DNA of 64,000 nucleotides, from positions 36,535 to 100,534 of the IMG/VR virus record IMGVR_UViG_3300028833_002293; one strand, 5' to 3'. A model generated the notes under the pieces. The model worked only from the letters and a program-made list of their open reading frames with translations, was not told the origin of the DNA and did no database searches. The translations under genes were made by a program, and so were the position numbers. Positions 51,685 to 51,772 of this stretch are shown in pieces. The DNA comes from a virus (Duplodnaviria; Heunggongvirae; Uroviricota; Caudoviricetes). Numbering within the stretch: position 1 is the stretch's first letter; each line of letters opens with the position of its first letter.

Positions 51685-51772
51685 CGTTTGGAATAGGATT
51701 CGAACCTATGGTGCAGCGAAACCACACGGCAGGTTAACAGCCTGCTGCCTTAAGCCACTCGGCCATCCAAAC
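51685..51772 (-). tRNA. class-II tRNA with a Ser-like body (3-bp D-stem GCC/GGC, 6-bp variable-arm stem, G73) but anticodon GUU (Asn codons)
   Basis: reverse complement: GTTTGGA-TG-GCC-GAGTGGCTTAA-GGC-A-GCAGG-CTGTTAA-CCTGC-CGTGTGG-TTTCG-CTGCAC-C-ATAGG-TTCGAAT-CCTAT-TCCAAAC-G; all stems are perfect Watson-Crick or G-U. Confidence 0.6.

Follow-up and report, generated by a model that had tools for sequence, protein, structure and literature searches.

Phages carry a widespread family of class II tRNA-Asn genes, accompanied by class II tRNAs for Lys, Thr, Met and Ile. The member described here is an 88-nucleotide (nt) gene with the anticodon GUU, located in a stretch of 64,000 nt from a virus of the Caudoviricetes (IMG/VR record IMGVR_UViG_3300028833_002293, positions 36,535 to 100,534); this whole stretch is referred to as the window. 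By textbook rule, a long variable arm is reserved for the tRNAs for Ser, Leu, selenocysteine (Sec) and bacterial Tyr. The initial annotation of the window took the gene for a Ser-type tRNA body carrying an Asn anticodon, and proposed that it inserts Ser at AAC/AAU codons. Judged from the sequence comparisons reported here, mistranslation of this kind is unlikely, and the class II tRNA-Asn family most likely still delivers asparagine.

The window gene and its phage family

ARAGORN called the gene as tRNA-Asn(gtt) at 51684-51772 on the minus strand; Rfam RF00005 matched 51685-51772 with 58.7 bits (gathering score 29; E = 4e-10) and with the full model covered; and the minimum free energy (MFE) fold, computed without constraint, was a cloverleaf with a long variable arm (-30.5 kcal/mol). 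The acceptor stem GUUUGGA/UCCAAAC consists of seven Watson-Crick pairs, among them G1-C72, U2-A71 and U3-A70, and is followed by G73. U8 and G9 connect it to the D-arm GCC-GAGUGGCUUAA-GGC, which has a 3-base-pair (bp) stem and a long D-loop and is followed by A26, while the anticodon arm is GCAGG-CUGUUAA-CCUGC and the T-arm is AUAGG-UUCGAAU-CCUAU. The variable arm has a 7-bp stem, in which three pairs are G.U, a UUC loop and one unpaired nucleotide on each side, which is a Ser-like geometry. The acceptor and T stems are of 7/5 type, G15 and C48 are present, and no stem pair is mismatched. Thus, the fold without a mismatch, the GUU anticodon, G73 and the class II body reported in the initial annotation, which omitted the strand, are upheld by three agreeing methods of the independent kind that it had called for. 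Moreover, alternative folds with GCU or another Ser anticodon were looked for, and no fold of the gene giving an anticodon other than GUU was found. As also described initially, a canonical tRNA-Asn(GUU) lies directly beside the gene, at a distance of 7 nt; this class I neighbour has U1-A72, G73 and the anticodon arm UCUGA-CUGUUAA-UCAGA. A scan for promoters and terminators around the window gene gave no signal beyond that in shuffled sequences, the sole terminator-like match being the anticodon arm itself.

Relatives were collected from IMG/VR using a pattern that combines a Ser/Tyr-type D-loop GAGTGG, the loop CTGTTAA, a gap of the size of a long variable region and a T-loop. The D-loop motif, the anticodon loop and the T-loop are fixed by this pattern, and their invariance is therefore uninformative; acceptor pairing, G73 and the arm hairpin are not fixed by it. 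The scan identified 63 loci (loci are designated by L numbers) in which ARAGORN called 67 class II GUU tRNAs, i.e. 56 unique sequences with very different stems. The same pattern found 10 loci in 596 Gb of bacterial and archaeal genomes (185,579 species), all of them in assemblies of uncultured genomes and nine labelled as metagenome-assembled genome (MAG); most of these loci are dense, phage-like tRNA arrays, and in L191 the Asn gene stands alone. BLAST against cultured phages revealed homologues in GenBank, annotated as plain tRNA-Asn, in the Pseudomonas phages phiKZ (PHIKZ_t02), OMKO1, PA1C, Psa21 and Y1-MI, in the Escherichia phages 4MG and Av-05, and in Cronobacter phage GAP31, Klebsiella phage VIK251, Enterobacter phage EC152 and Salmonella phage 7t3/SE_PL. 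When the whole region was compared with cultured phages by BLAST, only tRNA-sized matches and no close cultured relative were found.

In phiKZ, a class I tRNA-Asn gene lies 2 kb from the class II copy, and an HNH gene adjoins the latter. Pairs of class I and class II Asn genes recur in L001, L005, L036, L047, L061 and L195, and a class I gene is present within 400 nt of the class II gene in 15 of 62 loci, the locus sequences being partial. In GAP31 and in 4MG, no Asn tRNA other than the class II gene is annotated in the tRNA cluster, which comprises about 20 or more tRNA genes. The phiKZ dRNA-seq paper lists the gene simply as tRNA-Asn, and we found no account of class II tRNA-Asn, -Lys, -Thr or -Met in phages in the literature, a search of incomplete coverage that is not proof. 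In total, we conclude that the class II tRNA-Asn family is large, diverse and essentially phage-specific, that it spans dozens of phage lineages, often beside class I tRNA-Asn, and that it occurs in model phages, apparently unremarked before.

The window gene has all features of the family (GAGUGG-type D-loop, 3-bp D-stem, CUGUUAA, hairpin arm and G73). L005 and L006 are syntenic relatives of the window with 70-85% nucleotide identity in patches, and because these relatives include L005, part of a contig of 412,753 bp, the window is assigned to a huge phage. The class II Asn genes at the same syntenic place are 97% (L005) and 85% (L006) identical to the window gene, with flanking DNA at 73-85%; L005 has the local order of the window (Asn class I, Asn class II, Ala, Ser(UGA)), and the gene is also kept in L047, L046 and L061. 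The 32 best matches of the window gene were all class II Asn, with identities falling from 97% to 63%, at which level the first tRNA-Ser appeared, also with 63%. Consequently, the relation by a single nucleotide to tRNA-Ser(GCU) noted initially is not reflected in the nearest relatives. A recent origin from tRNA-Ser(GCU) was considered and rejected: L005 has both genes, and among the related phages the class II Asn genes are 78-97% identical to the window gene as against 63% for the best Ser. The acceptor stems of class II and class I Asn tRNAs of the same locus have a mean best identity of 2.7/7, equal to that with other isotypes. Shared acceptor sequences were seen as exceptions in L001 and in L062, in which both Asn classes have the identical 5' strand GGACAGG.

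Covariation was analysed in a MAFFT alignment of 38 sequences with the cloverleaf and the majority-type arm stem. Standard pairs made up 97.2% of the cells, 22 of 24 pairs had changed on both sides, and the covariation score was 0.881 compared to 0.213 in shuffles (0/500 reached the observed score) and 0.09-0.16 in slid registers. The 7-bp acceptor stem was 100% paired with covariation at all seven positions. All four variable-stem pairs covaried and were 85.5% paired, even though the subgroup of the window pairs in another register. Folded alone, the variable region gave a hairpin for 45 of the 50 unique members, and the window, L006 and L047 have retained this hairpin with wholly different arm sequences. 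We conclude that the window gene is real and under structural selection.

The arm of phage tRNA-Ser has 0-2 unpaired 3' nucleotides in 57 of 60 cases and a stem of 5-6 bp; in tRNA-Tyr there are mostly three such nucleotides and in tRNA-Leu mostly two. The class II Asn arm leaves 3-5, usually four, nucleotides unpaired on the 3' side in 34 of 50 members and has a 3-4 bp stem with a tetraloop; because of these unpaired nucleotides, the majority geometry is not of the Ser type. The arms of class II Lys, Thr and Ile tRNAs resemble those of class II Asn.

Amino acid identity at the acceptor end

Cellular tRNA-Asn has a class I body with a 4-5 nt variable loop, and the 28 unique class I tRNA-Asn of the same loci likewise have a loop of 4-5 nt. 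Bacterial Asn identity lies in the three anticodon bases together with G73, a set that can be transplanted into tRNA-Lys, and the amidotransferase GatCAB requires U1-A72 (PMC9976931). Seryl-tRNA synthetase (SerRS) recognises its tRNA by the long arm and the tertiary shape, without regard to the anticodon, and anticodon mutants of tRNA-Ser do mistranslate; for the E. coli enzyme, G73 is of moderate weight only and is reinforced by the acceptor stem, and most bacterial tRNA-Ser show absolute conservation of G1-C72 and G2-C71 (PMC9976931). G73 was found in 50/50 cleanly parsed family members, a result that the scan pattern does not force. Because both Asn and Ser require G73, it does not discriminate between them, and the initial use of G73 as a mark of Ser could not be sustained: together with GUU, it makes up the known bacterial Asn identity set.

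The first acceptor pairs were compared between the family and the phage tRNA-Ser of the same loci. G2-C71 is present in 21/22 tRNA-Ser and in 20/56 class II Asn; A3-U70 in 16/22 and 16/56; and U1-A72 in 0/22 and 26/56, as well as in 10/28 class I Asn. The window copy has G1-C72, U2-A71 and U3-A70, whereas the tRNA-Ser(UGA) of the window starts with GGA. With regard to Ser, the window copy therefore has G73, the arm geometry and G1-C72 and lacks G2-C71; with regard to Asn, it has GUU and G73 and lacks U1-A72, in place of which it has G1-C72, and the class I body. The missing U1-A72 is no bar where asparaginyl-tRNA synthetase (AsnRS) charges directly, because the pair is needed for the GatCAB route only. 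P. aeruginosa makes Asn-tRNA by the GatCAB route, and the hosts of the enterobacterial phages have AsnRS. Among the cultured copies, U1-A72 was found in 3/3 from Pseudomonas phages and G1-C72 in 4/4 from enterobacterial phages, which amounts to about two independent observations because the acceptor stems are alike within host groups.

The gene sits, as described initially, among other class II tRNAs with non-Ser/Leu/Tyr anticodons. If the class II body conferred Ser identity, G73 and G2-C71 would be expected to be retained in these sisters. Class II Lys tRNAs have A73 in 10/10 and C2-G71 in 7/10, as class I Lys; class II Thr(UGU) has U73 in 6/8 and G1-C2-C3 in 6/8, as class I Thr; the discriminator is C73 in the one class II His tRNA and U73 in the one class II Cys tRNA; and Ile and Met likewise keep their own identity marks. 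Within the window itself, A73 is the discriminator of the Lys(UUU), Met(CAU) and CUA class II units alike. Thus, the idea of a family of anticodon-shifted tRNA-Ser is contradicted, because the sister class II tRNAs keep the discriminators and acceptor pairs of their own isotypes. The same discriminators, together with the 7/5 stems of the window gene, speak against the family of allo-tRNA-like, anticodon-shifted tRNAs suggested in the initial annotation. Altogether, these comparisons show that, at the level of sequence, the acceptor-end features of the family are of the tRNA-Asn type and not of the tRNA-Ser type.

A tRNA-Ser usually has G20b. Charging by SerRS through the long arm and G73, with Ser inserted at AAC/AAU as programmed mistranslation or recoding, would fit the Ser-like D-arm of the window copy, its G73 and G15/C48, the 7-bp arm with one unpaired nucleotide on each side, and the indifference of SerRS to the anticodon together with the mistranslation by tRNA-Ser anticodon mutants (PMC9976931). 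However, the window copy has U2-A71 in place of the near-universal G2-C71 of bacterial and phage tRNA-Ser and, in our own reading, U20b; the ends of the tRNA are of the Asn type family-wide, including U1-A72 in nearly half of the family, and most members do not have the Ser arm geometry; GAP31 and 4MG have no further Asn tRNA in their annotated clusters; the sister tRNAs carry non-Ser discriminators; and a proteome-wide Asn-to-Ser error is hard to reconcile with wide and deep conservation. We regard serylation as distinctly improbable. Of the Ser-type body proposed initially, the long-arm geometry and G73 stand, G2-C71 does not, and some serylation may occur; Ser insertion is opposed by U2-A71, by U1-A72 in the family and by the sisters, which keep the marks of their own isotypes.

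The initial annotation alternatively considered these tRNAs as decoys for host anticodon nucleases. A tRNA-like RNA that soaks up such a nuclease, or serves another protein, without being aminoacylated would be in line with the duplication of an adjacent canonical tRNA-Asn, with the unusual shape and with the finding that phages counter tRNases with tRNAs (PMC12409363, PMC10264068). However, the invariant G73, the fully paired and covarying acceptor stem, the correlation of the 1-72 pair with the host and the status as sole Asn tRNA in the annotated clusters of some phages indicate selection on aminoacylation. A link to anticodon nucleases is thus plausible, whereas its decoy form, at odds with G73 and the acceptor covariation, is very unlikely.

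Companion class II tRNAs and host tRNA nucleases

We surveyed 818 tRNAs in the 63 loci and the window for long variable regions. These were present in 10/46 Lys(UUU), 8/40 Thr(UGU), 13/48 Met(CAU) and 5/26 Ile(GAU), as well as in a few further isoacceptors, and were absent from Ala (0/36), Gly (0/35), Glu (0/36), Gln (0/30) and Phe (0/27). For comparison, 120 IMG/VR loci with 741 tRNAs were used, i.e. class II carriers among the matches listed that were not selected for class II Asn; they derive from the pattern YTNNCR (class II tRNAs reading GNN codons), which is too loose, with at least 120 loci, and served as a comparison set only. In these 120 listed loci, no long arm was found on Asn (0/48), Lys(UUU) (0/16), Thr(UGU) (0/19), Met (0/110) or Ile(GAU) (0/11). 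Pooled, class II Lys(UUU), Thr(UGU), Met and Ile account for 36/160 tRNAs in the class II Asn loci and 0/156 in the comparison loci listed (p = 3e-12). Within the class II Asn loci, readers of ANN codons are enriched for long arms (38/251 versus 12/344, p = 7e-7), and long arms occur on Lys(UUU) and not Lys(CUU) (p = 0.02) and on Thr(UGU) and not the other Thr tRNAs (p = 0.04). These counts support the joint occurrence of class II versions as a suite within individual phages and on particular isoacceptors.

The co-occurrence of several class II tRNAs in the same genomes would also be expected of a phage-private translation channel, in which the class II shape is read by a phage synthetase or another phage factor as an orthogonal pair. 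Huge phages can encode synthetases; however, none was present among the 40 window open reading frames (ORFs) scanned, and to our knowledge 4MG, GAP31 and phiKZ have no AsnRS. We hold such a channel to be extremely improbable. A neutral relic is rather unlikely: here, a duplicated tRNA-Tyr(GUA) or tRNA-Ser(GCU) would have become a redundant tRNA-Asn with a functionless long arm. A single change turns GUA or GCU into GUU, most members have a Tyr-like arm (3-4 unpaired 3' nucleotides) and a CCC-GAGUGG..-GGG D-arm, and phage tRNA islands turn over fast and are rich in HNH endonucleases. However, drift should lose a useless 15-nt hairpin, and the arm is maintained by compensatory change over very divergent lineages; moreover, the pair of class I and class II genes recurs in many phages, and the arm-bearing forms are concentrated on certain isoacceptors and found together in individual phages.

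The reading that we consider moderately probable from these sequence patterns is that the gene encodes a functional tRNA-Asn that has a class II scaffold and receives its cognate amino acid, with the arm possibly kept for surviving host tRNA nucleases. The window gene would be transcribed together with its minus-strand neighbours, and CCA would be added by the CCA-adding enzyme. Host AsnRS, or non-discriminating AspRS together with GatCAB where the host relies on this pathway, would charge the tRNA with Asn through G34U35U36 and G73, and the charged tRNA would decode AAC/AAU as Asn. Finally, and this is the least supported step, the class II shape may provide a further Asn decoder of different structure, able to withstand the nucleases with which hosts attack tRNAs.

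The PARIS nuclease AriB targets Lys(UUU) and Thr(UGU) and, secondarily, Asn(GUU) and Thr(CGU); cleavage falls on the 3' side of the anticodon stem, between positions 40 and 41, AlphaFold 3 modelling places a second AriB subunit in contact with D-loop positions 16-17, and PARIS is overcome only with all three T5 tRNAs (PMC12409363). Because the long arm starts immediately behind position 43 and the D-loops of the two classes differ, escape by steric hindrance or shape is reasonable. Tentatively, class II Asn, Lys(UUU), Thr(UGU), initiator and elongator Met and Ile could represent a cognately charged, shape-shifted suite that evades host tRNases such as AriB. A structural mode of counter-defence, distinct from the escapes by point mutation so far described, is conceivable on the same basis, although doubtful. 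At the AriB site (U36-A-A-U39-C40/A41, the slash marking the cut), the window class II tRNA reads U-A-A-C39-C40/U41, whereas its class I neighbour reads U-A-A-U-C/A, as the site in E. coli tRNA-Lys does.

Several points weigh against a cognately charged, nuclease-evading tRNA-Asn. U39, in the UAAU motif near the AriB site, is kept in 22 of 38 members, i.e. there is no signal of escape at the sequence level, and Met and Ile are outside the AriB target set (PMC12409363). The evasion step draws on co-occurrence and on a single published set of targets, established in E. coli, perhaps not the host of this phage, and AsnRS would have to tolerate the long variable arm. The family was collected with a fixed D-loop GAGTGG, anticodon loop and T-loop, and its breadth and frequencies depend on that pattern. 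E. coli SerRS reportedly reads tertiary shape more than bases (PMC9976931); because of this shape reading and the Ser-like arm, partial serylation of the window copy is possible. Finally, the window copy belongs to a minority subgroup (11/50; the window, L005, L006, L046/L061, L047 and L001a/L036b) that is Ser-like, with one unpaired nucleotide on each side of a 4-7 bp arm stem, and that has the D-arm GCC-GAG(U/C)GG(C/U)UUAA-GGC and always U2-A71. Serylation is least implausible in this subgroup, which is the main reason for leaving it a small chance.

Genomic context and related systems

The window has about 36% G+C, and nearly all of its coding sequence is on the minus strand. ARAGORN called 28 tRNA genes, and Rfam gave 30 tRNA matches and one tmRNA, all on the minus strand; HNH endonuclease genes are interspersed in the tRNA island, which also contains the phage-encoded tmRNA. 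When TAG, TGA or TAA was read through, the minus-strand ORFs of the window were not lengthened in a recoding-like manner. A CCA-adding enzyme is needed because the tRNA genes here do not encode CCA, and the window contains one, as well as an RNA ligase with a possible role in tRNA repair; both lie upstream, with genes of NAD-salvage type. This cluster looks like an island against NAD-depleting and tRNA-damaging defences, and the proximity of RNA ligase and CCA-adding enzyme is consistent with pressure on tRNA integrity and no proof of it. The coordinates of all features are listed in Table 1.

Table 1. Positions of the window gene, its neighbours and other features in the window and in the loci compared
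Feature	Sequence	Position (strand)	Details
Class II tRNA-Asn(GUU)	Window	51685-51772 (-)	88 nt; G73; CCA not encoded
Anticodon G34 U35 U36	Window	51736-51738 (-)	in 7-nt loop CUGUUAA; + strand reads AAC
Variable region of class II tRNA-Asn	Window	51710-51728 (-)	19 nt: C-GUGUGGU-UUC-GCUGCAC-C
Class I tRNA-Asn(GUU), canonical	Window	51780-51853 (-)	78.1 bits (Rfam); 7 nt upstream in transcription direction
tRNA-Ser(UGA)	Window	51275-51365 (-)	acceptor GGAGGUA (G1 G2 A3); G73; 22-nt variable arm; genuine Ser body reference
tRNA-Asp(GUC)	Window	52131-52210 (-)	12-nt variable region
Class II tRNA-Lys(UUU)	Window	48114-48199 (-)	A73; 18-nt variable region
tRNA-Met(CAU)	Window	41568-41652 (-)	A73; 18-nt variable region
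Class II tRNA, anticodon CUA	Window	36323-36413 (-)	amber suppressor type; A73; 22-nt variable arm
Weak class II tRNA-like unit, anticodon CCU	Window	28331-28418 (-)	A2.C71 mismatch; odd D-arm
Third GUU unit	Window	39748-39871 (-)	124 nt; 39.4 bits to Rfam tRNA model
tmRNA	Window	42175-42537 (-)	Rfam RF00023; 76.9 bits; full length
RNA ligase (PF09414)	Window	4577-5488 (-)	E = 4e-12
CCA-adding tRNA nucleotidyltransferase	Window	7998-9392 (-)	PolyA_pol head E = 3e-26; RNA-binding domain E = 6e-16
NAD-salvage-type genes	Window	520-9392 and 22209-35094 (-)	NADAR, NAPRTase, isochorismatase-like, Nudix, CinA
Class II tRNA-Asn	L062	3087-3173	5' acceptor strand shared with class I Asn
Long-arm Met(CAU)	L001	3785-3869
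Long-arm Met(CAU)	L012	7151-7235
Long-arm Met(CAU)	L036	435-519
Long-arm Met(CAU)	L023	6463-6548
Long-arm Met(CAU)	L025	4352-4437
Class II tRNA-Arg(ACG)	L006	7975-8064	well-formed
Enlarged Asp(GUC)	L001	4147-4226
Enlarged Asp(GUC)	L035	5903-5989
Enlarged Asp(GUC)	L052	4186-4276
Enlarged Asp(GUC)	L128	817-902
Class II tRNA-Glu(UUC)	L072	3174-3265
Class II tRNA-Glu(UUC)	L117	976-1069
Class II tRNA-Glu(UUC)	L128	721-812
tRNA-Ile(UAU), long variable region	L154	5796-5887
tRNA-Ile(UAU), long variable region	L161	5229-5323
tRNA-Ile(UAU), long variable region	L185	596-689
tRNA-Ile(UAU), long variable region	L115	3478-3569
tRNA-Ile(UAU), long variable region	L060	1450-1543
Short-arm tRNA-Leu set	L046	58-899
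Short-arm tRNA-Leu set	L061	12777-14055

The other long-variable units of the window singled out initially were recovered by ARAGORN and Rfam in the case of CAU, UUU and CUA. The CCU unit is weak: it had no ARAGORN call and no Rfam tRNA match, its only match, to tRNA-Sec with 24.7 bits, is below the gathering score, and it has the A2.C71 mismatch; its D-arm (AAAACGUAAUUGAAUGACCGU) matches that of a class II tRNA-Arg(ACG) in the related contig L006. The CUA unit has a D-arm resembling those of the class II Asn and Lys units, and the ORF lengths in the window show no sign of TAG recoding. The class II Lys(UUU) lies within 450 nt of three other Lys tRNAs, i.e. two class I Lys(UUU) and one Lys(CUU), and it had no match in a BLAST search against cultured phages. 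A C1xA72 mismatch is a mark of the bacterial initiator tRNA. Long-arm Met(CAU) tRNAs with a variable region of 17-18 nt and about 85% identity by eye are found across otherwise unrelated phage contigs, and most of these copies have the C1xA72 mismatch and would be long-arm initiator tRNAs.

With introns allowed, ARAGORN read the third GUU unit as a GUU tRNA split by a 53-nt insertion after position 32; the insertion is too short for a group I intron, and a pseudogene, a new kind of insertion or a processed element are possibilities. Asp(GUC) tRNAs whose variable region is enlarged to 8-21 nt, and which share an odd D-arm (of the GGGGCUGCUUUGGUGUGGCC type in the loci), recur in phage contigs. 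Class II tRNA-Glu(UUC) was observed with a 22-nt variable arm, a GAGUGGUUUA D-loop and A73, and tRNA-Ile(UAU) with a 24-25 nt variable region and a conserved CCAGAUUAG motif occurs in unrelated phage contigs. The opposite oddity was also seen: according to ARAGORN, two loci have full sets of tRNA-Leu (UAG, CAA, AAG, UAA, CAG) that are only as long as class I tRNAs (about 75 nt) and whose variable loop measures 5-6 nt.

Compared to canonical class I tRNA-Asn(GUU), the family shares the CUGUUAA loop, G73, the 7/5 stems and, in about half of its members, U1-A72, and differs by a variable arm of 13-24 nt instead of 4-5 nt, a 3-bp D-stem and a long D-loop of GAGUGG type. With bacterial tRNA-Ser, it has in common the D-arm type, G73 and G15/C48, and the window subgroup also shares the single unpaired nucleotide on either side of the arm; in contrast to tRNA-Ser, the window copy has GUU and U2-A71 and is without A3-U70, and the family has U1-A72 in half of its members and mostly 3-4 unpaired 3' nucleotides. 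Bacterial tRNA-Tyr(GUA) shares G34 U35, an arm of 3-4 bp with about three unpaired nucleotides and, with many members, a CCC-GAG.GG...GGG D-arm; however, the family has U36 instead of A36 and G73 instead of A73, by which the main Tyr determinants are lost (PMC9976931).

The nearest conceptual precedents, by analogy, are the nev-tRNAs of nematodes and the nuclease-resistant T5 tRNAs. The nev-tRNAs are charged with Leu through the class II body. They are described as class II bodies with non-Leu/Ser anticodons, conserved in one lineage and giving an alternative genetic code for leucine (PMC3333845), whereas the acceptor-end features of the tRNAs reported here follow the anticodon, and the carriers are phages. 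The T5 tRNA-Lys/Thr/Asn share with the class II suite the isoacceptors Lys(UUU), Thr(UGU) and Asn(GUU), the phage origin and the position beside or in place of host-like copies (PMC12409363); in contrast, published resistant phage tRNAs have point substitutions near the cleavage site, and here a whole extra arm and a class II D-arm are present, with resistance only proposed (PMC12409363, PMC10264068). The initial annotation had also drawn the parallel to allo-tRNAs, which have Ser identity and many different anticodons. These are likewise unusual long-arm tRNAs from metagenomes; however, they have a 12-bp acceptor branch of 8/4 or 9/3 type (PMC5389517), as opposed to the 7/5 stems of the window gene, which is also without G2-C71.

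Were the tRNA to carry Ser, this would be the first case of natural mistranslation by a viral tRNA. A conserved phage class II tRNA-Asn breaks the long-arm rule, and its class II Lys, Thr, Met and Ile companions do likewise. This raises the question of how AsnRS, LysRS and ThrRS, which face the variable-loop side, accommodate the extra arm, and why phages hold both body plans side by side. It also raises the question of whether tRNA shape is a battleground between phages and tRNA-cleaving defence systems. With the gene present in phiKZ, which infects P. aeruginosa PAO1, and in 4MG, which infects E. coli K-12, these questions are directly testable.

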